From: Escherichia phage vB_EcoS_CEB_EC3a
Sequence record: NC_047812.1
Strand: one strand, 5' to 3'
Length of the DNA: 44,234 nucleotides
How positions within the stretch are numbered: position 1 is the stretch's first letter; each line of letters starts with the position of its first letter. Of the stretch, positions 894-44,049 are shown piece by piece. Both the position numbers and the translations under genes were made by a program. The notes below the pieces were generated by a model, which did not search any database, was not told where the DNA came from, and saw nothing but the letters and a program-made list of their open reading frames with translations.

Positions 894-1414
894 TGTTTGA
901 CTTTAAAGACAAACTAACAAGCGAGCAGATCATCAATATTGCACGTGCTGATGGTTATCCACTATTGCGAGTTGCAATCAATGCCAATGGATATCGTAGC
1001 TAAAATAAGTTCTGGGGTCAGCCTGATGCGTCAGAAGTATACAAAGATGAGGCGCTTGGGGTTCTGATTAAGCTAATCATGAAAATGGCAAGGAACGGCA
1101 AAGGAGTTGTCGGCATCAGATATCTATATGAAGGTGCTCGCAAGCTGAAACCATTTGCTGGGCGCGATGGAATGATGCTAGTGATCAAGGACAAGCTAAT
1201 TCCAGAGCTCGATAAGATGAATGTTACCTGTCTAATTGGAGATAAGGTTTACGTCAACCCTGCCTTGACGGATTTAAGCTGGCAACCAAACTTCAAAACT
1301 TACGAAGGTGAGCATGCTAGTAGACTACCATACCACTTGCGGTACAGTGAGGGTGAAGTGGAGATGGCTGTCGAGTTCTACCGGAAAGCTAAATCACTCC
1401 TGAACGGTGAATAG
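893..1414 (+). pseudogene. degenerate inverted paralog of gene 40729-42312: N-terminal fragment 893-1003 and frame-shifted C-terminal fragment 1079-1414, central ~430 codons missing
   Basis: MFDFKDKLTSEQ...LRVAINANGYR matches N-terminus and NGKGVVGIRYLYEGARKLKPF...CLIGDKVYVNP matches C-terminus of the 527-aa protein; fragments in different frames. Confidence 0.55.
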
Positions 1415-1454
1415 CACGGATTGCTAAACAATGGATCGGGTAGTCAGCTATAAT
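1412..1454 (+). promoter_or_regulatory. palindrome-promoter module (TAGCACGGATTGCTAAA, -10 TATAAT 1449-1454)
   Basis: Inverted repeat TAGCA-N5-TGCTA, 22 bp to -10, leader TTACCACATCGA; TAG 1412-1414 is stop of upstream ORF. Confidence 0.6.
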
Positions 1455-1484
1455 TACCACATCGACAACAAAGAGGAAATGAAG

Positions 1485-1685
1485 ATGAAAACTATGATTA
1501 TCGAAGATTTCGCAGGTGACATCACTGAGGTGTCTGCTTCAGTATATTACGACGGCATCGTGAGCATTGACATTGACACGGATAACTTAGGCGATGAAAT
1601 TACTATGTCTCACTATACACCAGAGCAAGCGCGCAAACTGGCGGCGGCATTAATCATGGCGGCGGAAGAGTCAGAGAAGCAATGA
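1485..1685 (+). CDS. hypothetical small protein
   Basis: ORF downstream of module; AAGAGGA RBS. Confidence 0.55.
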   Translation: MKTMIIEDFAGDITEVSASVYYDGIVSIDIDTDNLGDEITMSHYTPEQARKLAAALIMAAEESEKQ

Positions 1686-1698
1686 ATGAGAAATTATA

Positions 1699-1917
1699 AT
1701 GCAAGTATATACGAATAGTAATGGCGTAGAGTATTGTGTTGTTTACGGAGTGGTTCTTCGCACTGTTGGTGGCCTCGGGATCATCAACATTTCAGTGATC
1801 AAGCCTGAATCACTGGTGAAAGGAATCCAGGCCGGAATCTTCAGCTTTCACTCAACGCTGACGGCTAAGCAGTATGTTACCCTCGCCAACGCGGTTAAGT
1901 ACGGTTTTATCAAATAG
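1699..1917 (+). CDS. hypothetical small protein
   Basis: ORF; weak RBS; stop TAG lies in palindrome variant. Confidence 0.45.
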   Translation: MQVYTNSNGVEYCVVYGVVLRTVGGLGIINISVIKPESLVKGIQAGIFSFHSTLTAKQYVTLANAVKYGFIK

Positions 1918-1932
1918 CACTTTTTGTTAAAA
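1915..1932 (+). promoter_or_regulatory. palindrome variant TAGCACTTTTTGTTAAAA without obvious downstream -10/leader
   Basis: Sequence match to motif family; followed by hairpin GGGGATT..AATCCCC. Confidence 0.4.
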
Positions 1933-2110
1933 AGGGGATTCATCCTGACTGGTGTAATCCCCACATCAACCAAACAAATGGAAGTTAAGTGACCATATAC
2001 GAACATAAATTCAGCAGTAGGGGTATTGATATGCTCCTGCACTATTTAGACGAAAAATACGCAAATCTCATGCTTAAGGCGCATGGTGGAACAATAACGA
2101 GGATTGAGAT

Positions 2111-2371
2111 ATGAGCAAGTACGACCGCGAGATTATTGGTATTGATGGCACAGTAACAACAGTAGATGTTTATCGCGTTCTTGATGCGTTCAGCGTATCT
2201 GACCCAGCCACTCAGCATGCGGTAAAGAAGATGCTTTGTATGGGGTTGCGTGGACACAAGGATTACATAACCGACCTTAACGACTCAATCGAGTCATTAC
2301 AGAAAGCCAAGGAGCTTTACGGGCAAAAGATGATTCATCAATCGGATAAATCAAATCTGCGTGGTAAATAG
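2111..2371 (+). CDS. hypothetical protein
   Basis: ORF with GAGGA RBS; stop TAG 2369-2371 is first triplet of palindrome. Confidence 0.6.
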   Translation: MSKYDREIIGIDGTVTTVDVYRVLDAFSVSDPATQHAVKKMLCMGLRGHKDYITDLNDSIESLQKAKELYGQKMIHQSDKSNLRGK

Positions 2372-2411
2372 CACGAATTGCTAAACCCTCTCCGCAGGGT
2401 TTTGTTATAGT
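2369..2411 (+). promoter_or_regulatory. palindrome-promoter module (TAGCACGAATTGCTAAA, TGTTATAGT extended -10 at 2403-2411)
   Basis: Motif family member; 22 bp spacing. Confidence 0.6.
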
Positions 2412-2440
2412 TAGTTCACACCAAACGAGAGGAAAAAAAG

Positions 2441-2671
2441 ATGATTACAATTAACCTGTCAGAGAAAGATGCGTCAACACTCAAGCAGCTTCTTTCAGGA
2501 AATCCGGTGCACACTAATGTTTATAACTTTGGTGAAGTAGAAAGGGAGGTTATCGCACAAATAAACAACCAGCAATTCGACGTAAGTGACTTCGAAAGTT
2601 CTAGACAATACGAGGCGATGAGCGTCAATGCTGCATACCTGACCAACTGGGATAAGGCGACTAATAAATGA
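2441..2671 (+). CDS. hypothetical protein
   Basis: ORF with GAGAGGA RBS downstream of module. Confidence 0.6.
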   Translation: MITINLSEKDASTLKQLLSGNPVHTNVYNFGEVEREVIAQINNQQFDVSDFESSRQYEAMSVNAAYLTNWDKATNK

Positions 2672-2994
2672 TTTACATCCACACATATGGCGTAGGCAAG
2701 TTCGGAAAAGAGATTCATCGCACTGTTCACGATACGAAGGAATCAGCCGAAGCAGCACAAAAAGTTCTAGGCGGTGAGTTCAAGGCTTACCGCGAATCCG
2801 ATGACTCAGTTGATTGCTGGCGTGTAGAGCACATGCGAAACGTGCTTGAAAGTGAAGTATCCGAGCTTATAGACAACATGACATGTCACGGCCCAGGCGG
2901 TCCATGGGAGGAGCCAGGATCACCGGAATGGGATTGCGAAAAAGTTGAAACTATGAACAAGATTAGCGATATAATTGATGGTGTTTATCAGTGA
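2668..2994 (+). CDS. hypothetical protein
   Basis: ORF overlapping previous stop (ATGA coupling). Confidence 0.55.
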   Translation: MIYIHTYGVGKFGKEIHRTVHDTKESAEAAQKVLGGEFKAYRESDDSVDCWRVEHMRNVLESEVSELIDNMTCHGPGGPWEEPGSPEWDCEKVETMNKISDIIDGVYQ

Positions 2995-3088
2995 TTTTTT
3001 GATAAAATGATGCATCCTTAACGCCTCTTGGCAGCAGAAGGTGCTCGGTGGCACAATCAAGGTTTGCGAGATAATTAAAGAATACAAA

Positions 3089-3131
3089 TAGCACTAATTG
3101 CTAAACCATCATTGGGGTAATTTGTTATAGT
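3089..3131 (+). promoter_or_regulatory. palindrome-promoter module (TAGCACTAATTGCTAAA, TATAGT 3126-3131)
   Basis: Motif family member with leader TTACCACACCCAAAC. Confidence 0.6.
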
Positions 3132-3161
3132 TACCACACCCAAACTAACGAGGTTATAAGA

Positions 3162-3266
3162 ATGAGTGAATTAATTAAAACTATCGCGGACTATCCATTT
3201 GCTTCGCTTTTTCTTGCTCTTGCAATATATGAAATTGTAAAGATTATTGTAAAATGTATTAAATAG
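3162..3266 (+). CDS. 34-aa hydrophobic micropeptide (MSELIKTIADYPFASLFLALAIYEIVKIIVKCIK)
   Basis: Short ORF between two modules, CGAGG RBS; single predicted transmembrane helix; stop TAG in next palindrome. Confidence 0.45.
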   Translation: MSELIKTIADYPFASLFLALAIYEIVKIIVKCIK

Positions 3267-3306
3267 CACGAATTTCTAAAACATTATCGGGGTATCTTGC
3301 TATAGT
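3264..3306 (+). promoter_or_regulatory. palindrome-promoter module (TAGCACGAATTTCTAAA, TATAGT 3301-3306)
   Basis: Motif family member; leader TTACCCCATCAAAACGAAAC. Confidence 0.6.
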
Positions 3307-3336
3307 TACCCCATCAAAACGAAACAGGAAGCAGAA

Positions 3337-3516
3337 ATGAAATTTCAACAAGGCGAGCCAAAGCTACAAGCCAACCACTTCGACGGCTACGCAACATTCA
3401 TCATTGCTCAGGCTTTCGGAATGCGTGAAGACCCACAGGTTCACACCATTCACATGACTGAAGAGCAGGCCCGAGAGTTGGCATACGAAATTCTAGAGCA
3501 ATTGAATAAGATTTAA
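3337..3516 (+). CDS. hypothetical small protein (59 aa)
   Basis: ORF read directly from sequence; RBS GGAAG. Confidence 0.5.
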   Translation: MKFQQGEPKLQANHFDGYATFIIAQAFGMREDPQVHTIHMTEEQARELAYEILEQLNKI

Positions 3517-3567
3517 CGCGCACAAAACGCATTCTTACGAACAATAATTTAAGTAAGGTGATTAATC

Positions 3568-3693
3568 ATGGAAGTGCAAGAGAGCGCCGTAGAGTGGTGC
3601 AAGAGAATGCAGGACGAAGCTAAGACGGGTGAAGAGGCGATGGCTTACTACGAGATGGCGCAAATGTGGATGGAACGGGAGAAGAAAGAATGA
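3568..3693 (+). CDS. hypothetical small protein (41 aa)
   Basis: ORF with AAGGTGA RBS. Confidence 0.45.
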   Translation: MEVQESAVEWCKRMQDEAKTGEEAMAYYEMAQMWMEREKKE

Positions 3694-3833
3694 GTTTCAC
3701 TGAATACGTGATCGCATGCGAGCGACTGGTCTTTGATATGAAAACCTTCCACTGGTTCATCATTAAGGATTTAATCAAGCCTTATAAGCAGGGCGTTACG
3801 CCGGAGCGGTTTGTTAAGTCATTTTATAAATAG
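3690..3833 (+). CDS. hypothetical small protein (47 aa)
   Basis: ATGA overlap with previous; stop TAG 3831-3833 in palindrome. Confidence 0.45.
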   Translation: MSFTEYVIACERLVFDMKTFHWFIIKDLIKPYKQGVTPERFVKSFYK

Positions 3834-3873
3834 CACGAATTGCTCAACGCAGTCGACACGGATGGCATATAAT
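3831..3873 (+). promoter_or_regulatory. palindrome-promoter module (TAGCACGAATTGCTCAA, TATAAT 3868-3873)
   Basis: Motif family member, 21 bp spacing. Confidence 0.55.
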
Positions 3874-3903
3874 CACCTTACCAACACAACGAGAGATTGA
3901 GAC

Positions 3904-4044
3904 ATGAAGAACACATATAAATTTTATTATGAAGAAGAGTTTGTGGATGATTTAATTTACTTCAATGAGAAATATGGCGACGAGTTCGTCTGCAATGGGG
4001 ATGAAATGGAAGTGACTGCAAGCTTCAGTAGGGGGTTGAATTAA
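3904..4044 (+). CDS. hypothetical small protein (46 aa)
   Basis: ORF with GAGAG RBS downstream of module. Confidence 0.5.
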   Translation: MKNTYKFYYEEEFVDDLIYFNEKYGDEFVCNGDEMEVTASFSRGLN

Positions 4045-4283
4045 TGTTCGGATTATCAGAAGCGCACTTTAACGCAGTTAAACGTCAGGCTGCAAAGTTG
4101 AACGAAGAGTACAGCAAGTTATCGCCAAAGCAGCGCAAGGATGATAAGCAGGTTGCAGCATTGATTTCGAAGATGTGGGAGCCAGTTTTTACAATCATTA
4201 GTCGGGACCGTTTTGTTTGGACTAGCGGATATCTTAAGGGACGTGTTGGTCATGACGAGAATGGGAATAGCCTTTATGAGTAA
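4044..4283 (+). CDS. hypothetical protein
   Basis: ORF from six-frame track, coupled to upstream gene. Confidence 0.55.
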   Translation: MFGLSEAHFNAVKRQAAKLNEEYSKLSPKQRKDDKQVAALISKMWEPVFTIISRDRFVWTSGYLKGRVGHDENGNSLYE

Positions 4284-4661: not shown

Positions 4662-4739
4662 GCTCTGCTAGCTCAACAGGACAGCAGCAACGACCTTCTA
4701 AGTCGTAGGTTACTGGTTCGAATCCAGTGCGGAGCGCCA
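4662..4739 (+). tRNA. tRNA-Arg (anticodon TCT), CCA encoded
   Basis: Manual cloverleaf: acceptor GCTCTGC/GCGGAGC, anticodon stem ACGAC/GTCGT with loop CTTCTAA, T-arm ACTGG-TTCGAAT-CCAGT, discriminator G + CCA. Confidence 0.8.
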
Positions 4740-5680: not shown

Positions 5681-7246
5681 ATGTCTTTAGTATGGGAAGA
5701 AATGACCATTCAGGAAAAGATGGCCGTTAAGGCGATATCAGAACACAGCTTCGAGGGTTTCCTTCGTTGCTGGTTCCAGATTACACAAGGCGAGCGATAC
5801 ATCCCTAACTGGCATCACAAGTACTTGTGCAGAATCATTGATGAGATTATCGCAGGAGATCGCAAGGACACCATCATTAACATAGCACCAGGCAGCGGAA
5901 AGACGGAAATTGCCTCAATCCACTTCCCGGCCTATTCGATGGTTAAGCTTAGGAAGGTGCGCAACCTTAACATCTCTTTTGCTGACTCCCTGGTTAAGCG
6001 TAACTCGAAGCGAGTACGTGACCTTATCAAGTCTCAAGAATTTCAGTCACTCTGGCCATGCAAATTTGGCACCTGCAAAGACGATGAGCTTCAGGTTCTT
6101 GATGAGAGTGGCAAGGTTAGATTTGAGTCAATATCAAAGGCGGCTGGAGGCCAGATTACTGGCGCTCGCGGTGGGTACATAACCGAAACATACAGCGGAG
6201 CCGTTCTTTTGGATGACTTTGACAAACCCGCAGATATGTTATCAGCAGTGTACCGCTCGAATAATCACGTAATGCTTAAAAATACGATTCGCTCACGTCG
6301 AGCCAGTTCTGTAAAAGGCAAAGCGACACCAATCATTTCGATACAGCAGCGGCTTCACGTCAATGACTCAACCTATTTCATGATGGAAGGCGGCATGGGT
6401 ATCGAATTCGATTTGATTAAGATACCAGCATTAGTTACTGAGGATTACCTAGACACACTACCTGAATGGATTAAAGAACAGTTTGAAGAGGATGTCCTTA
6501 GTAGTGAATACATAGAGCGCGATGGAGTAAGGTATTACAGCTACTTCCCTAAAAAGGAGTCAGTCAATGACTTGGTTGCGATGTGGGATAGTGACCCTTA
6601 CACCTTCCTTAGTCAGTATCAACAAGAACCAGTAGCTCTAGGTGGCAACCTTATTAACGTAGATTGGTTCCAGCGCCTTAGCGACACGTTCAGACCTCCA
6701 GCTAAGTACGATTATAGATTTATAACTTGCGATACAGCTATGACTACAAAAAGTTATAGTGACTTCTCTGTCCTTCAATTGTGGGGTTATAAAGATGCTA
6801 AGATTTACCTTATTGACCAGCGCAGGGGGAAATGGGAAGCGCCCGAGTTAGAGGCAGAGTTAATCGATTTCGAGAAGAAATCAAGGGCAACCAGTCAATC
6901 GGATGGTATCCTCCGAAAGATTATCATCGAGAAGAAAGCATCTGGAATCGGACTCATTCAATCAGCAAGTCGAGTCATGAGAACGCCAGTGGAACCTTAT
7001 GTTCCTGATAATGACAAGTTAACAAGGGTGATGAGTGCGCTGCCACAGATTAAGGCTGGTAACGTAGTTCTTCCTGAGTCTGCGCCGTGGTTAAGCGGAT
7101 TGCTTACTGAGATTGCGGCATTTACCGCTGACGACAGCCATAATCACGACGACCAAATTGATACCATGACAATGGCTATCAACCTGGTTCTGAACATTGC
7201 GGATGATCCTAAGTCGAGACTGATGCGCATAGCGGGAATGAAATAG
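5681..7246 (+). CDS. terL: terminase large subunit
   Basis: 521 aa; Walker A-like APGSGKTE near N-terminus; C-terminal nuclease-like acidic region; precedes portal. Confidence 0.85.
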   Translation: MSLVWEEMTIQEKMAVKAISEHSFEGFLRCWFQITQGERYIPNWHHKYLCRIIDEIIAGDRKDTIINIAPGSGKTEIASIHFPAYSMVKLRKVRNLNISFADSLVKRNSKRVRDLIKSQEFQSLWPCKFGTCKDDELQVLDESGKVRFESISKAAGGQITGARGGYITETYSGAVLLDDFDKPADMLSAVYRSNNHVMLKNTIRSRRASSVKGKATPIISIQQRLHVNDSTYFMMEGGMGIEFDLIKIPALVTEDYLDTLPEWIKEQFEEDVLSSEYIERDGVRYYSYFPKKESVNDLVAMWDSDPYTFLSQYQQEPVALGGNLINVDWFQRLSDTFRPPAKYDYRFITCDTAMTTKSYSDFSVLQLWGYKDAKIYLIDQRRGKWEAPELEAELIDFEKKSRATSQSDGILRKIIIEKKASGIGLIQSASRVMRTPVEPYVPDNDKLTRVMSALPQIKAGNVVLPESAPWLSGLLTEIAAFTADDSHNHDDQIDTMTMAINLVLNIADDPKSRLMRIAGMK

Positions 7247-7286
7247 CACAAATTGCTAAACACTAAAGCCACGGATGGCGTATAGT
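7244..7286 (+). promoter_or_regulatory. palindrome-promoter module (TAGCACAAATTGCTAAA, TATAGT 7281-7286)
   Basis: Motif family member; TAG 7244-7246 is terL stop. Confidence 0.6.
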
Positions 7287-7315
7287 TACTTCACACAAAC
7301 GAGAGGAGAAGAAAG

Positions 7316-10568: not shown

Positions 10569-10586
10569 TAGCCAAGACATATAAAG

Positions 10587-10606
10587 CCTCCTTCGGGAGG
10601 TTTTTT
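10587..10606 (+). terminator. intrinsic terminator
   Basis: CCTCCTTCGGGAGG hairpin + T6. Confidence 0.75.
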
Positions 10607-10691
10607 ATTGCCTATCATCTCATCATTGCGTGGTCTAAAAACTCGTGTATAATGAACCCGTAGACACCTAACTGAAAAGGAACAATAAAGA

Positions 10692-14278: not shown

Positions 14279-14285
14279 AACACAA

Positions 14286-14307
14286 ACCCTCTTCGGAGGG
14301 TTTTTTA
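14286..14307 (+). terminator. intrinsic terminator
   Basis: ACCCTCTTCGGAGGGT hairpin + T6. Confidence 0.8.
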
Positions 14308-14312
14308 TTGCA

Positions 14313-14355
14313 TAGCACTTTTTGCTAAAGCGTTAATCCAATCTTCCTGTATAGT
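14313..14355 (+). promoter_or_regulatory. palindrome-promoter module (TAGCACTTTTTGCTAAAG, TATAGT 14350-14355)
   Basis: Motif family member, T-rich spacer variant; leader TTAACTCATCGAAACGAAA. Confidence 0.6.
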
Positions 14356-14388
14356 TAACTCATCGAAACGAAATGAGAGATTAAAGAA

Positions 14389-25544: not shown

Positions 25545-25606
25545 GTTTCGTTTCGATGTGGTAATAGTATCGAATCCTTGCGATCAGTGTTTAGCAATTA
25601 GTGCTA
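25545..25606 (-). promoter_or_regulatory. palindrome-promoter module, minus strand (TAGCACTAATTGCTAAA; -10 TACTAT; leader TTACCACATCGAAACGAAAC)
   Basis: Reverse complement of 25545-25612 matches module; palindrome TAG is stop of Rha-like gene. Confidence 0.6.
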
Positions 25607-26251
25607 TTTCTTTTCGAGTAACATCTTGATGTCAATGCCGAGATTATTTTCAATCAATCCAGTCAGTGCATCCGTCTTTTCTTTAAGGGCAAAACACTGA
25701 GCTTCATACTTAAATCTTTCCTCCATCTCGTCAGAGCGACTAACCCAGCACTGGCGAGCCTCGCAAGCCAGCATGTCGAGTTTTTCATCGGTATTCTTAT
25801 CCATGAGTAAGATCTCATTTATTCTTTGCTCTGCAACAATGCGCTGACTAAGGTGTGCATTTTGCGCATTAGCCACACCAAGCATCATTCGCACTTCTTT
25901 TAACTCATCAATGCTTACCATCTGGCTGATTACTTCTTCTTGTTTTTTAACTAATTGCTCAAGCTCATGAAGTCGACGGATAACTTTGTGTCGAAGCACG
26001 ACGCTGTAGCCAGTGATTAGCGTTTCGGTGAGTTCCTTGTTGAGTAAAATCTCAGATGTATAGCCTCGATTGTCTGTAAGTAGTTGATAATCATAATGAC
26101 CCAAATCTGGGGCATCGTTATAATGTAACAATTCATTGATCATTTCCTTTGTGTCGCGAACGACGTGATCATGACGTTTCCCGGTTAACTCTGCGATTTC
26201 CTTTGTGCTCATCATGGTTTTTGGTTGTTCTTTGTACAATTCAATGTTCAT
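25604..26251 (-). CDS. Rha-family phage regulatory protein (putative)
   Basis: N-terminal STKEIAELTGKRHDHVVRDTKEMI motif; start at ATG 26251 with AGAGAG RBS. Confidence 0.55.
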   Translation of the reverse strand: MNIELYKEQPKTMMSTKEIAELTGKRHDHVVRDTKEMINELLHYNDAPDLGHYDYQLLTDNRGYTSEILLNKELTETLITGYSVVLRHKVIRRLHELEQLVKKQEEVISQMVSIDELKEVRMMLGVANAQNAHLSQRIVAEQRINEILLMDKNTDEKLDMLACEARQCWVSRSDEMEERFKYEAQCFALKEKTDALTGLIENNLGIDIKMLLEKK

Positions 26252-26315
26252 TTTCATCTCTCTTTGGTTTTGTGATACGAAATTTTCGTAGCACAAGCAG
26301 CACCATTGCCGCCAT

Positions 26316-26366
26316 GCGCCTAAATATAACTAAAGATAGTCAGTTGTCTTTAGCAATTAGTGCTAT
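26316..26366 (-). promoter_or_regulatory. palindrome-promoter module, minus strand (TAGCACTAATTGCTAAA, -10 TATATT)
   Basis: Reverse complement shows palindrome 22 bp upstream of TATATT; upstream of Rha-like gene. Confidence 0.5.
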
Positions 26367-26379
26367 TTATCGCCAATTT

Positions 26380-26760
26380 CACCATAAATCACGGTTACAC
26401 GTAACCGATGTAACTCTATGTATACAATATCATCCGCGGAAAATGATATACGCGCTGTTACGCCAATTTACGCATTGGTTACATTAAAATATCTATATAT
26501 ATCAACCTTTTACTCTTATTATTATTATTATATATATTACTGTGTATATCATGTAACTACTTCTATAGAGTGTTCCGGTTATAATTTTAATATCATGTGG
26601 ATTTATACAGTATTGCGTGGCAACTATACCAACGCACCCTCAGCCAGGAATGGTATACACGATATACACGACGGTTACATTGAGCTATAGCTGGGCTGAG
26701 GTGCCCAAAAACGTAACGAGAGCTAATACCTACACGGAATTACGAGGATTCACACGTAAC
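26380..26760. promoter_or_regulatory. divergent regulatory region; AT-rich block (copy B) with ACGTAAC/GTTAC repeats including palindrome GGTTACACGTAACC
   Basis: Homologous to 90-345; palindrome at 26393-26406; (TTA)n and (TA)n runs; no convincing ORF. Confidence 0.55.
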
Positions 26761-27051: not shown

Positions 27052-28017
27052 ATGAGCTTTACTGTTTACACACGAGAAGAACTATCAAACTCTGAGTACC
27101 ACTCTGAGACTGATCACATCTCCGGTAGCTCGCTTGTCGAGATTATCCATGGTTCGCCAGCTAAGTGGAAATTCAAACAGCGCAATAATGATAGTAAGGC
27201 TCTTAAATTTGGCACGCTGTCACATACTTACATCCTAGAAGGTGACATGTTTGATAAAGAATTCCTTCGAGCCACAGACCTTGACGCGATTGAAGGCTTA
27301 ATTACAAGCCAGACCGGATTATCGGCAGCGCTGAAAAAAGTTGGCGTTGCTGGCACGTCTGGGAAGGGCTATAGCGAACTTGTAGAGATGATGTATCGCT
27401 CCGGTGAGGATTGGCCTGTTAAGTGGCTAATTGAACAGCAGGAGAGTGCTCAGGCGCTTGTGGAGGGTAGGGAGCTAGTTAGCGCGGCAGACTATGACAA
27501 AGTGGTGGCGATGCGTGAGGTTCTTTGTAATATTCCAGCATATAATGCAATAGTGAACAGCGAGACAGCGCAGAAAGAGCTATCAATCTTTGGTGAGATT
27601 CTCGGCGTCGGCGTGAAGATTCGAATTGACCACGTTGATGTTGTTGATGGTGTGGTGTGTATTACCGATCTGAAAACGACAGCCAGCGCATCACCTCAGG
27701 AGTTTGGGAGACTTGCATTCAAGCATGGGTATCTTGCAAAAATGGCTCTACAGCACGATGTTTTTGTTATGGCTTTTAATGAAAAAAGAAAAACAAAAGT
27801 AAGGCTACTTGCAATCGAGAAAGAGGAGCCTTACCTACCAATGCTTTACAACATTACAGAAGAGCAACTGAAGGTTGGTCGCAGAATGTATTTAGAGGCG
27901 CTTGCCACTTACAAAAAGTGCAAAGAGAATGATGTGTGGCCCGGTTATGCAATGGGCGCAACAGAGATCGACCTAGATGTTCCTGAGTGGGATATGAGGA
28001 AGTATAAAGAAATTTAA
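27052..28017 (+). CDS. recombination exonuclease, PD-(D/E)XK family (putative)
   Basis: IDHVDVVDGVVCITDLKTT resembles D..(D/E)xK nuclease core; precedes Erf and SSB. Confidence 0.6.
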   Translation: MSFTVYTREELSNSEYHSETDHISGSSLVEIIHGSPAKWKFKQRNNDSKALKFGTLSHTYILEGDMFDKEFLRATDLDAIEGLITSQTGLSAALKKVGVAGTSGKGYSELVEMMYRSGEDWPVKWLIEQQESAQALVEGRELVSAADYDKVVAMREVLCNIPAYNAIVNSETAQKELSIFGEILGVGVKIRIDHVDVVDGVVCITDLKTTASASPQEFGRLAFKHGYLAKMALQHDVFVMAFNEKRKTKVRLLAIEKEEPYLPMLYNITEEQLKVGRRMYLEALATYKKCKENDVWPGYAMGATEIDLDVPEWDMRKYKEI

Positions 28018-28018
28018 A

Positions 28019-28061
28019 TAGCACGAATCGCTAAAGACAAAATTAAAAGGTGGGGTATGAT
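28019..28061 (+). promoter_or_regulatory. palindrome-promoter module (TAGCACGAATCGCTAAA, -10 TATGAT 28056-28061)
   Basis: Motif family member; 20 bp spacing. Confidence 0.55.
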
Positions 28062-28090
28062 TACCCAATCAACAACGAACGAGGTTAAAG

Positions 28091-32054: not shown

Positions 32055-32078
32055 TGTGTAAAGTCTCCATTTGTAAAG

Positions 32079-32095
32079 TAGCACTAATTGCTAAA
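32079..32095 (+). promoter_or_regulatory. palindrome TAGCACTAATTGCTAAA in + orientation between two minus-strand genes
   Basis: Motif family member; possible downstream -10 TGTATAAAA at 32119-32127 would read antisense into primase gene. Confidence 0.4.
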
Positions 32096-32120
32096 GTGGA
32101 TTGTATCATCTTTCATGTAT

Positions 32121-32143: not shown

Positions 32144-33065
32144 AGTCTAGTAATTCGCTTGCTTTGTATATTCGCTTTCTTATGCCTGACTTGAAAAAAT
32201 TATCATCATTTGGCATTACCACATCAAGATTGCGATCGTCAGCAACAGCGAGTAAATCAAAATCGTGGCGAGTACAAGCGACGCGTAACTTGTAGTTTCT
32301 AAGCGCATAAGCAACCATTTCCATGTTGTAGCTGGAGTGGCAAACAAGCACACAGCGGTTGCCAGTAGCAATGTGAACGCGATAGCCGTCAATGAGATTA
32401 TCGACCAGATAAGCGTACTCATCATCTTTAAAGGCGCCAATAATAGAAACAGACTGGCGAGTATAATCTTTTGCAGCATAGCTAACATCTCCATCTTCAT
32501 TGATAAACATTACATTGCACATATCATCTGATATGCCGTCACTATAAGCCATAAAGCACGGTACTGCGTGTATTAGTTCGCCTGATTTAGTCCTGCCAAC
32601 ATCAAAACCAAATTCGCTATAGATACCCTCGTATATACTGAGCGGTGTTGATTCTACTCTTTCCGTCCTTTCCATTATCTCAAGGCATCTTTCGTGGTCA
32701 ATCTGCGCGCCCATTTTATAAAGCTTAGTTCTTGATGCTTGCTTGTTTGCCTTAACTATAACCTCAATTGGTGTTAAGTTCAGCCAGTCACCAAGCAAAT
32801 TCACTGAATCGGCGAAGGACGATCCAGTGCACTTCATGACCCATCCTATACCTGAGTCACTTCCGCATTTCGAACAAACTGCCGCGCCATTTCCTTTTTC
32901 ACTGCCTATTTCGTCGGTAAATCTGAATCTGTCAGTGCCAAGGCAGTATGGGCATGGTCCGTGCTTCTTACTTAGGTGTCTATCATTCCAACCAAGTTCC
33001 TTTGCATAAAATAATTTCCACAATCCGGCCATCTTAGGTATAACTTCATTCTTATCGTAATTCAT
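32142..33065 (-). CDS. DNA primase (zinc-ribbon containing)
   Basis: Cys motif CPYC...CSKC near N-terminus; adjacent to helicase region. Confidence 0.6.
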   Translation of the reverse strand: MNYDKNEVIPKMAGLWKLFYAKELGWNDRHLSKKHGPCPYCLGTDRFRFTDEIGSEKGNGAAVCSKCGSDSGIGWVMKCTGSSFADSVNLLGDWLNLTPIEVIVKANKQASRTKLYKMGAQIDHERCLEIMERTERVESTPLSIYEGIYSEFGFDVGRTKSGELIHAVPCFMAYSDGISDDMCNVMFINEDGDVSYAAKDYTRQSVSIIGAFKDDEYAYLVDNLIDGYRVHIATGNRCVLVCHSSYNMEMVAYALRNYKLRVACTRHDFDLLAVADDRNLDVVMPNDDNFFKSGIRKRIYKASELLD

Positions 33066-33541
33066 TTGCTTAACCCGTGATTTTCGTGAAAGTTGTATTT
33101 TCTCTCTGCTTCAATTCTTACTTTATACGCCTGCTCTGGAGTATCGAAGTTCCCAAGGTGTAGCTGCTTACCGTCAACCTTGATGTGAGCCTTAAATTTT
33201 CCGTGATTTAGCTTTGCCACTCCACAATAACCAGTTGTTGATAAAACGCTAAGCTTGCAATTTCTTGAGTTACCTTGATTTGTTGTTACTCTTAGGTTTT
33301 CTATTCTGTTATCTAATTTGTTATGGTTTATATGATCAATGTAGTCGCCATTTTTAAGTTCTCCATTAAACATCTCCCACACAACTCTATGTACATAAGT
33401 CCTAAAGCCATTAACAGACACTTTGTAATAGCCAGATGTAGATAGTGAGTTGCACTCATCGCCAACCTTAACACGTCTTGCAGTGCTAATCTTCCAATGC
33501 AATTTGCCATCTACATAGTAAAAATAATCATGCCAGTTCAT
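33062..33541 (-). CDS. HNH homing endonuclease with AP2-like DNA-binding domain
   Basis: DYIDHINHNKLDNRIENLR HNH motif; GYCGVAK...GKQLHLGNFDT AP2-like segment. Confidence 0.8.
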   Translation of the reverse strand: MNWHDYFYYVDGKLHWKISTARRVKVGDECNSLSTSGYYKVSVNGFRTYVHRVVWEMFNGELKNGDYIDHINHNKLDNRIENLRVTTNQGNSRNCKLSVLSTTGYCGVAKLNHGKFKAHIKVDGKQLHLGNFDTPEQAYKVRIEAERKYNFHENHGLSK

Positions 33542-33556
33542 TTTCTTCTCTCCAAT

Positions 33557-33587
33557 AAAAAAAGGATGTACCGATTATGGCACATCC
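33557..33587 (-). terminator. intrinsic terminator (minus strand)
   Basis: GGATGTACCGATTATGGCACATCC hairpin preceded on + strand by A7 (T-run on minus). Confidence 0.6.
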
Positions 33588-33593: not shown

Positions 33594-34067
33594 TTACTCT
33601 TTAGCTTTTCGTGCGGCTTCGTTAGCTGCCTTGATCTTTCGCCATGAGCGACACTCTGGTTTAGTTGCTAGCTCAGCCTCAGTAACAACACGCAGCATAT
33701 GACGCTTCTTGCAACGTAGAGTTAGCGGTTTCCCGTTACCGTCGAATTGCAGATCTGGTCGGCAGAATGTAGCGCGAAAACCTTCTCCATTTCGCTTATA
33801 GTAGTTGTGCGACAGCTGGGCGCCGCGCGCAGAAATCATCCCACGCTTAAACCATTCTTCTACAGCCTGAGGTGTCACCTTTAACTGCTTTGCGATATTT
33901 GCCTTTGTGCCGAAGAAATCAAGAACAATCTCCAACCGTGCGCGCAACCCAGCCCTTACCTCGTCTTTTAAAACGTAGTAGCCTGAAGGTCGTTTCCGTT
34001 GTTTTTTGTCTTCAGTACGAATGGTTCCGTTGTTCCCGTTAATTGTTCGCTTGTCTACTGCATTCAT
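33594..34067 (-). CDS. putative HTH DNA-binding regulator
   Basis: Basic protein with helix-turn-helix-like NIAKQLKVTPQAVEEWFKRG segment; divergent from helicase gene. Confidence 0.4.
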   Translation of the reverse strand: MNAVDKRTINGNNGTIRTEDKKQRKRPSGYYVLKDEVRAGLRARLEIVLDFFGTKANIAKQLKVTPQAVEEWFKRGMISARGAQLSHNYYKRNGEGFRATFCRPDLQFDGNGKPLTLRCKKRHMLRVVTEAELATKPECRSWRKIKAANEAARKAKE

Positions 34068-34168
34068 TTCATTACCTCAATAGCATTTTTTGTTAAAAGT
34101 CATTCCGATTTAATGTTATTATTGTACTCAATTAAACGCTACAAGACAATTTTTATAGGAATTTAGAT

Positions 34169-36164: not shown

Positions 36165-36584
36165 ATGCAAATTACAGACAAAGAAGATTACATTGAGTTT
36201 TACCCAGGCCCGGTTAAGTCGTGTCCGAAAGAGGATGACGAACAAATCTTTTGCTCTGATTGGGTTAAGTATAACTACCCGGAGATGGTATTTTTCCACT
36301 GCGTAAATGAGGGGAAGAAAACCATTGGACAGGCAAGAAAGGACCAGGCTAAAGGGCTCCTTAAAGGCGTGTCAGACTGCATGTTTCTTATTCCCGAGTC
36401 TCTGAGAGGCAAATACCCTTTCGGAGCTATAGAGCTGAAGAGGGCTGGCAAAACTCAGGCTAGCCCAGTCAGTGACGAACAGAAGTCTTTCCTTAAAAGC
36501 GTAAGAGAATCAGGCGGTTTCGCTGGTGTTGCCTACGGGCGCGAGGGTTTTCTTGCGGCATTCAAAGAAATGATTTCAAAATAG
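36165..36584 (+). CDS. VRR-NUC domain nuclease (putative)
   Basis: IELKRAGKTQASPVSDEQKSFL pattern; stop TAG in palindrome. Confidence 0.55.
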   Translation: MQITDKEDYIEFYPGPVKSCPKEDDEQIFCSDWVKYNYPEMVFFHCVNEGKKTIGQARKDQAKGLLKGVSDCMFLIPESLRGKYPFGAIELKRAGKTQASPVSDEQKSFLKSVRESGGFAGVAYGREGFLAAFKEMISK

Positions 36585-36624
36585 CACGAATTGCTAAAGA
36601 CGATTTTAAAAGATGCGATATAGT
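36582..36624 (+). promoter_or_regulatory. palindrome-promoter module (TAGCACGAATTGCTAAA, TATAGT 36619-36624)
   Basis: Motif family; leader TTACCACATCGAAACGAAAC. Confidence 0.65.
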
Positions 36625-36662
36625 TACCACATCGAAACGAAACACATAGAGAGAGAAACAAA

Positions 36663-37785: not shown

Positions 37786-38916
37786 ATGGCAACTGCAAAA
37801 ATTACCAACGAAGAACTGCGCGAAGAACTGGCAAATGGCATGACCAACAAGGCAATCGCAGAGAAGTACGGAATGAACATTCGCAACGTTGAATTGCGTC
37901 GTAGTAAATTGGCTAAACAAGGTGAGGGGCATGGCCGTGATGTTAGTAACCTAATCCCTCAAGGTTACGCCGTTAAGGGCGTTTCTAGCTTAATTGGTGC
38001 TGATGGTGAGATCAAGCAACAGTGGGTAAAGTCTGACATTGACAAGGAGAAGCAAGAAGAAATGATGCTTCAGGCAATTCAGGCGATGACCGATGAGTTA
38101 CCACGCGAAAAAGCGAAGCCACTCAGTACGTCATCATTTGAGGACACTCTGAGCCTTTACCCTGTATTCGACCTTCACATTGGCGCAATGGCTCACCATG
38201 CTGAATGTGGCGAGAACTACAGCACTGAAATCGCCGAGCGAGTCCTTAATAGTTATTTTGATTACGCCGTTGCAAAGGCACCAAACTCCAAGAAAGCTGT
38301 ATTGCTGATTGGTGGTGACTTCCTTCACTCTGACGGAATGGAGGCGGTAACCCCAACCAGTCGTCATATTCTTGATCAGGATAGTCGATACCACAAATTG
38401 GTTTACGTAGCAGTGAGAGCGACGCGAAGAGCAATTAGTCGGATGCTTGATAAGCACGCTGAGGTTGAGGTTCAGATTATTCCTGGAAACCACGATCTTT
38501 CAGGAATGATTTGGTTGCGTGCGGCAATGGCCGCTTTCTATATGGATGAGCCTCGAGTTAATGTTGATGCGTCACCTGCTGCGCTTCACGTAACGCAGTT
38601 TGGAAAGACGCTACTTGGTTACTGTCATGGACATGAACTCAAAAAGCCTGATACCAGACTATCAACACTGGCTCGTGACCATCGTAAGGCTTTTGGTGAG
38701 TCTGAGTATGTTTACACTCATAGTGGCCATTACCACCATCAAACGATTACAGAGGGTAACTTAGGTATCGATGAGTCTCATGGTCAGCTTGGTTGTAAGG
38801 ATGCGTACAGTGCCAACGGTGGTTATCGCTCTTATCGCCAGGCGTCTGTAATCATCTACAGCCCTAAATTCGGAGAGATTGGTCGATTCACTTGCCGTCC
38901 CGAAATGTTTAGTTAA
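37786..38916 (+). CDS. HTH domain + calcineurin-like metallophosphoesterase
   Basis: N-terminal GMTNKAIAEKYGMNIRNVELRRSKL; phosphoesterase motifs DLHIG, GGDFLHSDG, GNHD, CHGHE, GHYHH. Confidence 0.6.
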   Translation: MATAKITNEELREELANGMTNKAIAEKYGMNIRNVELRRSKLAKQGEGHGRDVSNLIPQGYAVKGVSSLIGADGEIKQQWVKSDIDKEKQEEMMLQAIQAMTDELPREKAKPLSTSSFEDTLSLYPVFDLHIGAMAHHAECGENYSTEIAERVLNSYFDYAVAKAPNSKKAVLLIGGDFLHSDGMEAVTPTSRHILDQDSRYHKLVYVAVRATRRAISRMLDKHAEVEVQIIPGNHDLSGMIWLRAAMAAFYMDEPRVNVDASPAALHVTQFGKTLLGYCHGHELKKPDTRLSTLARDHRKAFGESEYVYTHSGHYHHQTITEGNLGIDESHGQLGCKDAYSANGGYRSYRQASVIIYSPKFGEIGRFTCRPEMFS

Positions 38917-38959
38917 TAGCACTTTTTGCCTAAAGAATGCCGTAGAAATGCGGCATAAT
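38917..38959 (+). promoter_or_regulatory. palindrome-promoter module (TAGCACTTTTTGCCTAAAG, -10 CATAAT 38954-38959)
   Basis: Motif family; leader TACCACATCGAAAC. Confidence 0.6.
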
Positions 38960-39000
38960 TACCACATCGAAACTAGACAAACAAAACGAGGAAACACAAA

Positions 39001-40375: not shown

Positions 40376-40392
40376 TGGAGGCTATATTTTTA
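40366..40392. terminator. bidirectional intrinsic terminator
   Basis: AGCCTCCTAATGGAGGCT hairpin flanked by A6 and T-run. Confidence 0.7.
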
Positions 40393-40725
40393 GCTAAATA
40401 ACTCTTCGTCAGTCATTGTCCCTATGTTCATCATCTCTTTTATGTACTGGCTTTCATACCCGTTAAGCGCCTCAAAGTTGAAACCAAATGGCCTCTTCAA
40501 GCTACCCTTACTAACAAACTCACCGCACTTGCCATCAATGTATCCGGCACTCAACATCTTCGCGCAGAACTCCTTTGAAGCTGCGCTGCAAAAATCTCGA
40601 TGCGATAACCCCGCCGCCTTACTGAATCTCTGAGAGTCCTTATGCTTGTAGATGAATCGCGCCAAATGCTGGCGCGTGAAAAAGCTATAGGATTCGCAAA
40701 ACTTAAATATATCTAGCAGGAACAT
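40390..40725 (-). CDS. hypothetical protein
   Basis: 111 aa ORF coupled to upstream 527-aa gene. Confidence 0.5.
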   Translation of the reverse strand: MFLLDIFKFCESYSFFTRQHLARFIYKHKDSQRFSKAAGLSHRDFCSAASKEFCAKMLSAGYIDGKCGEFVSKGSLKRPFGFNFEALNGYESQYIKEMMNIGTMTDEELFS

Positions 40726-40728
40726 CGC

Positions 40729-42312: not shown

Positions 42313-42342
42313 TACTTCTCTCCGTGTTGTTTCTGAGCGGCC

Positions 42343-42388
42343 ATTATATCAACGACCGCTTATAATTCATTATCAATTTGTGCTATTT
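42343..42388 (-). promoter_or_regulatory. palindrome-promoter module, minus strand (TAGCACAAATTGATAA, -10 TATAAT)
   Basis: Reverse complement of 42343-42388; upstream of 527-aa gene. Confidence 0.5.
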
Positions 42389-42806
42389 ACAGGTACTGGG
42401 CCTCAAAATGGTACGTCTGGCAAAGAGTGTAAAATCCAACATCCTCGCTACGGTAAAGCTGCCAGGCATTGCCATCCTCATCGTAAATGTAACCTGCATT
42501 TTGTCCAAGCCCAGCATGAAGTGCCACCTGGTAACGTTTCCCCTCTTTAAAGTCTTTTTTAATCCCAGATTTGTGATTAACCTTTTTGCAGTAAAGCGTT
42601 TTGGTCTTAATGTACTTACCGCGCCCTTCCAGGTTAATCCATTTGCCATCTTTCTTGATTTGCTCAAATTCCACTTCATCAACTACACCATTAACCAATT
42701 GGTGAACCTTTTTAACGCGAGCTTTGTAGAGTACGTTTTCGTTGCTAACCCAGTTCTTTGTGGTTTTGTTCCATCCGACAGTTATCTTGCAGTAATTGAT
42801 AGTCAT
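42387..42806 (-). CDS. hypothetical basic protein
   Basis: ORF on minus strand in a minus-strand gene cluster; start ATG 42806 (alternative GTG 42830). Confidence 0.5.
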   Translation of the reverse strand: MTINYCKITVGWNKTTKNWVSNENVLYKARVKKVHQLVNGVVDEVEFEQIKKDGKWINLEGRGKYIKTKTLYCKKVNHKSGIKKDFKEGKRYQVALHAGLGQNAGYIYDEDGNAWQLYRSEDVGFYTLCQTYHFEAQYL

Positions 42807-42966
42807 TATTTTATTCTCTTCGTTGTCCACATAAATTTGTTTGGTACTGATTTGCGCACGATGCGCACCACAATCTTATCAACCTTCTGAACTAAACCGT
42901 AAATCTTCCCATCAAGTGACGCGCGGTACACTGCCTCTTCCATTGCGTCGTAAAAGTTGTCGAACA

Positions 42967-43146
42967 TTAAATCGCCACCTTAACCTCAAACTCTTCAATA
43001 AGGTAATAATCAGGAACATAACCAAGAGTTATATCGATATCTAAGAGTCTATTCTTTTCAAATTCAGCTAGTTCCTCTGTATCAAAAACACCAAAGATTT
43101 CAAAGCCATCATAGTTAGTATAACCATTGAGTAAGTAAACTTTCAT
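42967..43146 (-). CDS. hypothetical small acidic protein (59 aa)
   Basis: ORF read manually; GAGAGGAGA RBS; downstream of minus-strand module. Confidence 0.5.
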   Translation of the reverse strand: MKVYLLNGYTNYDGFEIFGVFDTEELAEFEKNRLLDIDITLGYVPDYYLIEEFEVKVAI

Positions 43147-43175
43147 TTTTTATCTCCTCTCGTTTCGATGAAGTA

Positions 43176-43221
43176 ACTATATAACATCCGTGGCGGTGAG
43201 TTTTAGCAATTCGTGCTATTT
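43176..43221 (-). promoter_or_regulatory. palindrome-promoter module, minus strand (TAGCACGAATTGCTAAA, TATAGT, leader TTACTTCATCGAAACGAGAGG)
   Basis: Reverse complement matches module; palindrome contains stop TAA of upstream gene. Confidence 0.6.
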
Positions 43222-43364
43222 CGTGCCTTCTCAATCGCCTTCAGCACAATCTCGTGAGACTCAAGCAAGTCCTCGTTGAACCAGTCTCCGCAAGGCCAGC
43301 CCTTTCCGCTATAGGCACTTATGACCTCAAGATCGAAATAATTTATCTCAGATGGTAGAAGCAT
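43203..43364 (-). CDS. hypothetical small protein (53 aa)
   Basis: ORF read manually; ATG overlaps upstream stop (TGATG); stop TAA inside palindrome. Confidence 0.45.
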   Translation of the reverse strand: MLLPSEINYFDLEVISAYSGKGWPCGDWFNEDLLESHEIVLKAIEKARNSTNC

Positions 43365-43603
43365 CACTTCACCTCGTCAAAAGTTGCAATTCCAGGAATA
43401 AACATTCCAACCTTCCAGCCTGCAATGGAAATCCATCCAGAATTGTGCTTGTGCGGTCGCTCAGCGCCATTAATCACCCACTCGTTCGGGATTGTCTTCC
43501 CGTTAATGATTAGTGGCTCAGCGTCGTATACATAGCCTTTTACGAATGGCGTTAAGACTTTCTTGTCGGTACTGGTGATGCAATTAGTGCAGCGAATTTT
43601 CAT
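43364..43603 (-). CDS. hypothetical protein
   Basis: ORF from track in coupled minus-strand array. Confidence 0.5.
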   Translation of the reverse strand: MKIRCTNCITSTDKKVLTPFVKGYVYDAEPLIINGKTIPNEWVINGAERPHKHNSGWISIAGWKVGMFIPGIATFDEVK

Positions 43604-43788
43604 AATTGAACCTCGACCTCATCCTCGAAAACTGTAGCTGGCTTACCAACTGAGTTAATAATGTCAAATGATTTAAGTTCAGTATCCCTATCAATAACAT
43701 CGTAGACCTTGCCAATGAAAAGGCCATAATCAATTTCATCTGACCCGTCCATGTCAATATCTTTAAACTTAACTAACTTGATTTTCAT
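43600..43788 (-). CDS. hypothetical small acidic protein
   Basis: ORF from track; ATGA overlap with downstream gene. Confidence 0.5.
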   Translation of the reverse strand: MKIKLVKFKDIDMDGSDEIDYGLFIGKVYDVIDRDTELKSFDIINSVGKPATVFEDEVEVQL

Positions 43789-43798
43789 ATCTCAATCC

Positions 43799-43978
43799 TC
43801 AAACAAATGGCAGGCATTCTGCGCATCCAAGCCCATCACAGCACAGAAATTCATCTTCTGACTGGAATTGCCTGGCAATGTCAATATCAATCTTGTCGAG
43901 CAGAACAAGTGCAGTGTAAATCTCATTCAACCCAATCAGTGCGCATTCGTGGCGTAACTCGTCTTTATCAATCTTCAT
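43799..43978 (-). CDS. hypothetical small Cys-containing protein (59 aa)
   Basis: ORF read manually; GAGGAGATAG RBS; downstream of minus-strand module. Confidence 0.5.
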   Translation of the reverse strand: MKIDKDELRHECALIGLNEIYTALVLLDKIDIDIARQFQSEDEFLCCDGLGCAECLPFV

Positions 43979-44004
43979 ATCTATCTCCTCGTTTTGATGA
44001 GTTA

Positions 44005-44049
44005 ACTATATCCTCCATGACCCACAATGTCTTTAGCAAAAAGTGCTAT
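44005..44049 (-). promoter_or_regulatory. palindrome-promoter module, minus strand (TAGCACTTTTTGCTAAAG, TATAGT, leader TTAACTCATCAAAACGAGGAG)
   Basis: Reverse complement matches module family. Confidence 0.6.

Follow-up and report, generated by a model that had tools for sequence, protein, structure and literature searches.

The genome of Escherichia phage vB_EcoS_CEB_EC3a (NC_047812.1), whose 44,234 bases were analysed as a whole and are referred to here as the window, carries 18 copies of a 20-bp, partially palindromic repeat, most of which stand at a fixed distance upstream of a predicted -10 hexamer. The repeat would be the upstream element of a portable, compact sigma70 promoter cassette that is devoid of a -35 box and docks a putative DNA-binding protein; a probability of about 0.55 is assigned to this reading. 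The geometry of the cassette, the missing -35, the conservation throughout the phage family, the associated stem-loops, and one cassette swap at the repeats are directly seen, and what lies beyond this anatomy is deduced from it. As a promoter-associated element of fixed geometry, the repeat is best interpreted as an operator for a phage or host factor, which is among the functions that an earlier note on this DNA had considered.

The window covers essentially the whole genome of a siphophage that is Rtp-like and belongs to the family Drexlerviridae (T1-like phages), a placement backed by the taxonomy lines of Rtp and related records. Its sequence identity is 93% with Escherichia phage PCEc3 and 86-87% with DTL, Rtp, and Veterinaerplatzvirus isolates. 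The comparison covered nine Drexlerviridae genomes belonging to six genera, namely, the window, PCEc3, T1, Rtp, two Veterinaerplatzvirus isolates, Klebsiella phage KP36, Pantoea phage AAS23, and Vibrio phage Vc1. The module profile comprises 557 distinct modules, while 512 non-redundant modules were used for the stem-loop test and 409 for the -35 test.

Occurrence and Consensus of the Repeat

The repeats are the direct repeat (DR) already published for T1-like phages, which answers the question of the earlier note as to whether such a module had been described. In the re-annotation of phage TLS, a 21-nt DR, aaATAGCACnnnTTGnTAAAA, is reported at 21 places, where it points along transcription about 76 nt upstream of start codons and forms three groups according to its central triplet (A, T, or G); "similar repeats" are mentioned for T1, Rtp, and Rogue1, ordinary sigma70 promoters number only three in the TLS genome, and stoperators, enhancer-binding sites, and UP elements are named as possible functions (PMC11447400).

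In the window, TAGCA-N5-TGCTA (TAGCANNNNNTGCTA) has 11 exact matches, with 0.04 expected. Allowing up to two mismatches, a search with the oriented core TAGCAC-N3-TTGCTA recovers all 17 copies listed previously; in addition, there is a degenerate 18th copy (TAGCATTTTTTGTTA) at 34081, in the gap between the divergently oriented regulator and helicase genes. The motif had been written as AATAGCAC-N4-TTGCTAAA, which exceeds the true gap (N3) by one base, and the literal pattern occurs at one site only. On the minus strand, the copies begin 1-3 nt beyond the coordinates given there, at 25592, 26351, 42371, 43204, and 44034. Seventeen of the 18 copies are co-oriented with the downstream gene, the copy at 32079 being the exception, and in most of them the start codon is found 70-74 nt from the first T of the core, corresponding to 73-77 nt from the start of the 21-mer. 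The nine genomes contain 15-23 repeat sites each, where one or two are expected.

The profile yields the 20-bp consensus AAATAGCAC-KWW-TTGYTAAAA, in which G3, C4, A5, and G12 are conserved at 99-100% and column 13 alone varies freely within the core (C 68%, T 28%). A or T (W) predominates in the central triplet, which is nearly without C and is reminiscent of the centre of dimer operators. The supposed two spacer classes are real but too few, since three or four can be distinguished (GAA/GGA, TAA, AAA, and TTT); no obvious link between triplet type (GAA, TAA, AAA, TTT) and temporal gene class is seen in the window. The overlap with stop codons is borne out: the TAG of the core ends a plausible upstream open reading frame (ORF) in nine copies, and a TAA abuts the core at 28019 and 38917.

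Anatomy of the Promoter Module

A TATAGT/TATAAT-like hexamer is found exactly 22 bp past TTGCTA in 14 of the 18 window copies. Three further copies have it at 21 or 23 bp and the one at 32079 is without a conserved -10; a fixed distance of 21-22 bp had been proposed before. An A is situated 7 nt past the -10 hexamer in 14/18 copies. Throughout the nine genomes, [TC]AnnnT occurs at exactly 22 bp in 60-80% of the sites against a per-position background of 3.4%. When the regulator/helicase gaps of five genera are aligned, conservation is confined to the repeat and the -10, which keep a constant distance.

The -10 corresponds to columns 38-43 of the 557-module profile; 74% of the modules have G at -14 and 42% have T at -15. 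Of the 14 window sites with a -10 at 22 bp, ten have G at -14 and four the full TG. C49-A50 is a typical -1/+1 pair and is followed by an A/C-rich leader. With the predicted +1 at column 50, the repeat would extend from about -52 to -32, its 15-bp core being centred at -42. The consensus of the conserved leader described in the earlier note is correct, albeit exact only in the copies at 25592, 36582, and 38917 and absent from those at 26351 and 32079. Vibrio phage Vc1 has ACCAATCAG(GAG) 18 times, an alternative conserved leader with Shine-Dalgarno sequence that is also seen in modules of T1 and KP36.

The repeat is too distant from the -10 for a -35 element, as had been pointed out; a spacing of 22 bp between -35 and -10 exceeds the tolerance of sigma70. 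At the regular distance of 16-18 bp, at least four of six -35 bases are matched in 8.8% of the 409 modules, the value for random TAnnnT sites being 12.3%. Nor does the window contain canonical sigma70 promoter-like sites in excess of expectation (26 versus 26.0 and 43 versus 42.2 expected). A hidden -35 was dismissed, the scan hits "TAAACA-18" at 1425 and 7257 being merely the tail of the repeat, with matches at chance level. An upstream start from TGnTAAAA within the repeat, acting as an extended -10, was discarded as well, the last-position T being present in only 5% of the modules. Sigma54 promoters carry GG and GC one turn apart, with the start 12 nt downstream. This identity (TGGCAC-N5-TTGC) was rejected for the repeat (TAGCAC-N3-TTGC), which has A for G at 97% and a gap that is 2 bp shorter.

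Stem-Loops and Terminators

Many modules contain an inverted repeat by which the spacer pairs with the six bases after the -10, as in GGGGTA...TATAGT-TACCCC, AAGGCCA...TGGCCTT, and the covarying pair GGGGATT...AATCCCC of the window (module 1912..1965) and GGGCATT...AATGCCC of AAS23. Other modules feature a G+C hairpin with its end in the -10; in the T1 annotation, one such hairpin is listed as terminator. Stems that pair perfectly over 6 bp or more are present in 33% of the 512 modules versus 7% after random re-pairing of left and right segments, and the right arm mostly ends at -1. The arms probably lie in the spacer and at -6 to -1 because these are the sole unconstrained bases of a tight cassette. 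Among stems with one mismatch, G-T is found in 18/36 and A-C in 3/36, an excess which indicates that pairing is selected in the sense-strand RNA, that is, in transcripts arriving from upstream. Intrinsic terminator-like sites are frequent in the window (22 versus 12 and 23 versus 15.5).

These structures are distinct from a hairpin formed by the palindrome itself, another of the functions suggested in the earlier note. Read as RNA, the palindrome would give a 5-bp stem with a 5-nt loop of boxB-like size, with a role in processing, stability, or antitermination across terminators. Such a fold is predicted in about 65% of the modules, the commonest variant (C13 to T) keeps a G-U pair, and both the RNA-level selection on the neighbouring stem-loop and the abundance of terminator-like sites would suit it. 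Yet the right-half variants TTGATA, TTGCAA, TCGCTA, TAGCTA, and TTGCCT are uncompensated in the left half, the stem does not include the conserved A flanks and C6/T10, the hairpin would be upstream of the predicted start and hence missing from the cassette's own mRNA, and no boxA-like partner was seen. An RNA function of the palindrome is, therefore, very unlikely. In particular, a lambda-type nut/boxB RNA was rejected, the stem not being kept by compensatory changes.

Exchange of Gene Cassettes and Occurrence in T4-Like Phages

Gene cassettes are exchanged at the repeats. On the minus strand at 25.5-26.4 kb the window has the order repeat-gene-repeat, with a Rha/Ant-like gene (25609-26395) between two identical cores; in PCEc3, a different gene, coding for 86 amino acids, is located between the same two modules, and T145P1 has a single module without a gene. 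Homology with four relatives often breaks at the core, namely, at 1413, 3263/3264, 7245, 25608, 28004-28018, 38928, 42387/42393, and 43202, and 16% of the homology breakpoints fall into modules that cover 3.2% of the genome. Measured against gene junctions the excess is marginal (19% versus 13%, p ~0.05), for which reason breakpoint statistics, strong against genome length, were not accepted as proof of recombination. The recombination boundary anticipated in the earlier note is thus clear at the Rha/Ant-like cassette but of marginal significance in general.

Complete modules are also present in T4-like Straboviridae, among them Lw1, RB16, RB43, GAP161, GuL6, EBPL, Phynn, and Klebsiella slopekvirus-like phages, with one to three per genome in the early dda/dexA region. 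In Straboviridae of five hosts, including Escherichia phage Lw1 (9000-14500), the module consists of the repeat, 22 bp, TATAGT, and the leader TACCCCATCGAAAC. Alignment of five T4-like phages reveals a nearly invariant 60-nt module with unrelated flanks; the EBPL module has a compensated stem, GGGATA/TATCCC, and the gene of one Straboviridae cassette has Drexlerviridae homologues. A third promoter of Lw1 keeps -10 and leader, with AAAATTGCTT at 21 bp in place of the repeat. The T4-like modules may reflect a recent spread without selection.

Such mobility raises the question whether the repeats have any regulatory role or are only homology patches for cassette exchange, or selfish repeats. The swap exactly at the repeats, the breakpoints within modules, and the spread to T4-like phages would be in line with this, but neither the position-specific conservation of the core nor the fixed -10 distance nor the one-way orientation would be needed for it, and the excess over gene junctions is marginal; this explanation is regarded as extremely improbable.

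Candidate Readers of the Repeat

The motif has features of a dimer site: its two TAGCA arms are separated by one helical turn, its centre is rich in W, its position is typical of class II activators, and inverted copies stand in repression positions. At the Cro-like gene, an inverted copy adjoins the Shine-Dalgarno sequence in each of the five genera aligned. In T1, one is found inside the spacer of the capsid promoter (TTGACG-16-TATTAT), as it is at the equivalent promoters of AAS23 and Vc1, and one at the +1 of the tail-fibre promoter. The window promoter of the major capsid gene (10580-10650), TTGCGT-16-TATAAT, is ordinary-looking, follows a strong terminator, and is without the repeat.

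The Cro-like protein encoded at 33594-34067 (157 amino acids) is the only classical regulator common to the family, occurring in 823 phage records, and is a candidate for a phage-encoded reader. Its AlphaFold model (predicted local distance difference test, 86.5) matches Cro folds such as those of Xfaso-1 and N15 Cro. The recognition helix is variable at the usual base-contacting positions 66, 67, and 70, and the N-terminal arm is invariant; a variable helix fits an invariant motif poorly. Residues 5-45, DKRTINGNNGT.R..DKK.RKRP.GYYVLKDEVKAGLRARLE, are the most conserved part, more so than the helix-turn-helix, and the N-terminal segment is predicted to be partly disordered, with an AT-hook-like RKRP motif. 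The promoter of the Cro-like gene (TTGTCT-17-TACAAT, minus strand) and that of the helicase gene (TATTAT, plus strand) have overlapping -10 boxes at 34081-34150, which is a switch-like layout. An imperfect inverted repeat, CGATTTAATG...CAATTAAACG (AACGTTTAC...GTAAACGTT in T1), surrounds these boxes and may be the operator of the Cro-like protein itself.

If this protein bound all copies, the repeat would be a negative-control operator of the stoperator or Cro type, and the promoters would fire via the -10 alone. The Cro-fold protein is a core gene product of the family, the repeat always lies between its promoter and its Shine-Dalgarno sequence, as in autoregulation, some T1 copies overlap core promoters, and stoperators have been proposed by the TLS authors (PMC11447400). 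The strict 22 bp and the single orientation, however, suit a promoter element and not a roadblock, a site at -42 leaves the -10 unoccluded, and the recognition helix varies while the motif does not. In addition, modules persist in T4-like phages, and no Cro-like homologue was seen in records above 57 kb among the matches listed, so that the module-bearing T4-like phages appear to be without the protein. A repressor operator is accordingly judged quite unlikely, and the T4-like modules favour a host-encoded reader or direct recognition by the polymerase. A host protein is, hence, somewhat more likely as reader than the phage Cro-like protein.

For a host-encoded reader, the Lrp/AsnC family would be a lead rather than a finding. 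The Lrp consensus of E. coli obtained by systematic evolution of ligands by exponential enrichment, yAGhAwATTwTdCTr (quoted in PMC5554404), is matched at all arm positions by TAGCA...TTGCTA, and Lrp is 91% identical between E. coli and Vibrio vulnificus. Copies of the TTT class differ from this consensus at 2/15 positions and copies overall by two or three mismatches, as do about 60 other sites. The 5-3-5 palindrome with an A/T centre resembles sites of this family, but the invariant C4, C6, and G12 are not Lrp preferences and Lrp promoters usually have several phased sites. A phage-encoded Lrp/AsnC protein was excluded for the fetched phage genomes, in which tblastn with E. coli Lrp (checked against PDB 2GQQ) gave no match. 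Sites of Fis, IHF, CRP/FNR, and DnaA do not fit the profile. The other two small proteins found family-wide (40390-40725 and 42387-42830) are without a conserved DNA-reading segment and were set aside. The SbcD/Mre11-like "DNA repair exonuclease" (37786-38916) shows a faint N-terminal helix-turn-helix resembling GerE and sigma70 region 4 (residues 13-42, E 0.04-0.13), as noted likewise by the KP36 annotators.

Alternatively, the host RNA polymerase holoenzyme would read the repeat directly as an unusual upstream element, either by alpha C-terminal domains on A/T patches at about -51, -42, and -34 or by sigma region 4 on the -35-like TTGYTA, which shares 4/6 bases with TTGACA; -10-driven promoters with G at -14 would thereby be strengthened from the first second of infection. 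This would agree with an invariant motif in phages whose hosts, Escherichia, Klebsiella, Pantoea, and Vibrio, have nearly identical polymerases, and with intact modules in that part of T4-like genomes, the early dda/dexA region, on which unmodified host polymerase acts; UP elements were also raised as a possibility by the TLS authors (PMC11447400). The position indeed fits that of a UP element (A/T tract, -60 to -38), but the invariance of G3, C4, A5, C6, and G12 is unlike the A/T-tract consensus, and this identity was rejected. Moreover, the 22-bp spacer is beyond what sigma70 tolerates, and an oriented element contacted by the polymerase would hardly be expected in inverted form within core promoters. 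Direct reading is, consequently, considered rather improbable.

Proposed Mechanism

According to the promoter cassette model preferred here, a cassette would consist of the stop codon that ends the upstream gene (in many cases the motif's own TAG), the 20-bp repeat, the 22-bp spacer, the -10, the +1 A, a leader, and the ATG. The leader would be A/C-rich, 22-25 nt long, and equipped with a Shine-Dalgarno sequence. The host sigma70 RNA polymerase would use the -10 of TATAGT/TATAAT type, with G at -14, a part of the extended -10 TGn motif, in most modules. The repeat, a 5-3-5 partial palindrome at -42, would stand in for the -35 by docking a sequence-specific dimer that recruits the polymerase, and the same protein would act as repressor where the repeat is inverted over a core promoter or 5' untranslated region. 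In sense RNA reading through from upstream, the spacer arm would pair with the arm at -6 to -1 and serve, in the manner of the promoter-early stem-loops (PeSLs) discussed below, as attenuator or 3' stabiliser. Finally, the repeated cassettes would double as junctions for homologous gene exchange.

In its most far-reaching form, near-all promoters of a virulent family and the T4-like cassettes would depend on one host DNA-binding protein through a -42 site that replaces the -35. This is a possible but unlikely extension; the candidates would be an Lrp/AsnC-type protein or another conserved enterobacterial/Vibrio factor.

Several observations weigh against the promoter cassette with a docked protein. 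The repeat precedes early, replication, structural, and lysis genes alike and is, thus, not an obvious temporal switch. Constraint is stronger on the left half than on the right, and the two A-rich flanks read alike on the top strand, so that a plain symmetric dimer does not explain the whole motif. Regarding its reader, the Cro-like protein has the right fold but could not be accepted as proven, for the mismatch of variable helix and invariant motif given above, and sites with up to three mismatches to the Lrp consensus are not enriched in the window (79 versus 98 expected). A -10 with G at -14 may be active enough alone, without an upstream factor. In the literature on T1-like phages neither mapped transcription starts nor a named binding factor nor an Lrp link was found; the +1 and the centre at -42 are, accordingly, predictions.

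Features of the Window

The individual modules are compiled in Table 1. The segment 3262-3322 is 87% identical to T1 1449-1509. The T1 equivalent of the 32079 copy, at 34903, begins at the +1 of a promoter read from the sequence as TTGCAA-17-TAAAAT.

Table 1: Repeat-containing modules and the Cro-like gene of the window (all transcription starts, +1, are predicted).
Feature	Position	Strand	Details
Promoter module	1409..1461	+	Core 1412-1426 (TAGCACGGATTGCTA), 22-bp spacer, -10 TATAAT, +1 A 1461; core TAG is stop of 111-amino acid ORF 1079-1414
Degenerate module	1912..1965	+	Core 1915-1929 (TTGTTA variant), 23-bp spacer, -10 TGTAAT within covarying stem (see text); core TAG stops ORF 1699-1917
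Module	2366..2418	+	Core 2369-2383, TGT-TATAGT, +1 2418; terminator-like hairpin 2383-2402 in spacer, T-tail running into -10
Module	3086..3138	+	Core 3089-3103, TGT-TATAGT, +1 3138
Module	3261..3313	+	Core 3264-3278 (TTTCTA variant), TGC-TATAGT flanked by stem GGGGTA/TACCCC, +1 3313
Module	3828..3880	+	Core 3831-3845, -10 TATAAT, +1 3880
Module after large terminase gene	7241..7293	+	Core 7244-7258, -10 TATAGT, +1 7293; core TAG is terminase stop codon (ORF 5681-7246)
Module after major tail gene	14310..14362	+	Core 14313-14327, -10 TATAGT; strong terminator 14284-14303 directly before
Module	25557..25609	-	Core 25592-25606, -10 TACTAT, full leader; downstream boundary of Rha/Ant-like cassette
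Module	26316..26368	-	Core 26351-26365, -10 TATATT, without conserved leader; upstream boundary of Rha/Ant-like cassette; predicted promoter driving the Rha/Ant-like gene
Module between exonuclease VIII and Erf genes	28016..28068	+	Core 28019-28033 (TCGCTA variant), stem GGGTA/TACCC, -10 TATGAT
Repeat core only	32076..32096	+	Opposite in orientation to both neighbouring genes; between primase terminator and tail-fibre start, just downstream of minus-strand TGa-TACAAT
18th module	34078..34129	+	Core 34081-34095 (TAGCATTTTTTGTTA), 21-bp spacer, TGT-TATTAT; abuts Shine-Dalgarno sequence of Cro-like gene on other strand; predicted promoter driving the helicase gene
Module	36579..36631	+	Core 36582-36596, -10 TATAGT, exact leader
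Module	38914..38966	+	1-nt insertion in right half (TTGCCTA); hairpin TGCCG/CGGCA ending in -10 CATAAT
Module	42336..42388	-	Core 42371-42385 (TTGATA variant); stem AGCGGTC/GGCCGCT with one G-T pair around TATAAT; predicted promoter driving the DUF3987 helicase gene
Module	43169..43221	-	Core 43204-43218, -10 TATAGT
Module	43998..44051	-	Core 44034-44048, 23-bp spacer, -10 TATAGT
Cro/cI-fold helix-turn-helix gene	33594..34067	-	Homologue of T1 gp23 and Rtp52; Pfam P22_Cro 3.9e-6, phrog_2856

Apart from the modules, the window has a single tRNA-Arg (anticodon TCT) at 4662-4739, upstream of the small terminase gene. Between the genes for primase and regulator lies an HNH endonuclease gene (ORF 33062-33541, minus strand; Pfam HNH_3, 1.8e-18). 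It appears to be a mobile nuclease gene that was inserted recently, since PCEc3 and Rtp have only about 270-290 bp in place of the region 32810-33557.

Significance

T1-like phages are common contaminants in laboratories and fermentations and are candidates for phage therapy. Their transcription is essentially unmapped, and published annotation finds just a handful of ordinary promoters. If the repeat together with the -10 were the main promoter type, one short motif would account for most T1-like transcription units, the cassette could be employed directly as a compact promoter part, and a single reader protein would be indicated, through the loss or titration of which the phage family as a whole could be blocked. 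If that reader were a single host regulator, phage gene expression would depend on it and could be blocked through it, and if sigma70 holoenzyme recognized the 20-bp element directly, this would be a geometry not described so far. The T4-like cassettes show that regulatory modules move between unrelated phage families along with small genes.

Comparison with Known Systems

The repeat of the window and the DR of TLS agree in consensus, intergenic position, orientation, the three spacer groups, and phage family; there are 21 copies in TLS and 18 in the window, and the distances to the start codon are about 76 and about 73-77 nt, respectively. The DR section of the TLS paper contains neither a fixed -10 distance nor stem-loops, but otherwise nothing essential separates the two. 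Fixed -10 geometry, missing -35, stem-loops, cassette swap, and T4-like occurrence are added here to the published description.

The stoperators of mycobacteriophage L5 are similar in that many copies of one short asymmetric site have one orientation relative to transcription. They differ in being bound by a prophage repressor and lying inside transcription units at no fixed distance from promoters, whereas the phage of the window is virulent and its site is locked 22 bp upstream of the -10, which contradicts an L5-type stoperator.

The PeSL stem-loops of T4-type phages have been shown to terminate or attenuate upstream transcription (PMC2839356, PMC4122927). They share with the T1-like modules the order of stop codon in an A/T-rich stretch, promoter, G-rich/C-rich stem-loop, and Shine-Dalgarno sequence. 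In both, the embedded stem-loop is located in the spacer, over the -10, or just before +1, and G-T pairs are present. Both are concentrated in variable regions with small unknown genes and border on genes that were swapped or deleted, which for the window is evident at 25609-26395, the overall statistics being marginal only. PeSLs, however, have a normal, near-consensus -35 at 17 bp from the -10, while the T1-like modules are without it and possess a distinct 20-bp repeat 22 bp from the -10. Terminator and promoter activities were measured for PeSLs, whereas the T1-like modules are known here from sequence.

With regard to activation, the closest parallel would be class II promoters, at which CRP or FNR at -41.5, lambda cI at OR2 of PRM, and Mu Mor and C at -43.5 recruit the polymerase. 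The motif matches none of the sites of these proteins, and it precedes every gene class rather than one temporal class. What is shared, on established knowledge and the predicted +1, would be a site with dyad character, about 15-20 bp long and centred near -42, a usable -10 in combination with a -35 that is weak or missing, and repression from the same site when it is placed over the core promoter.

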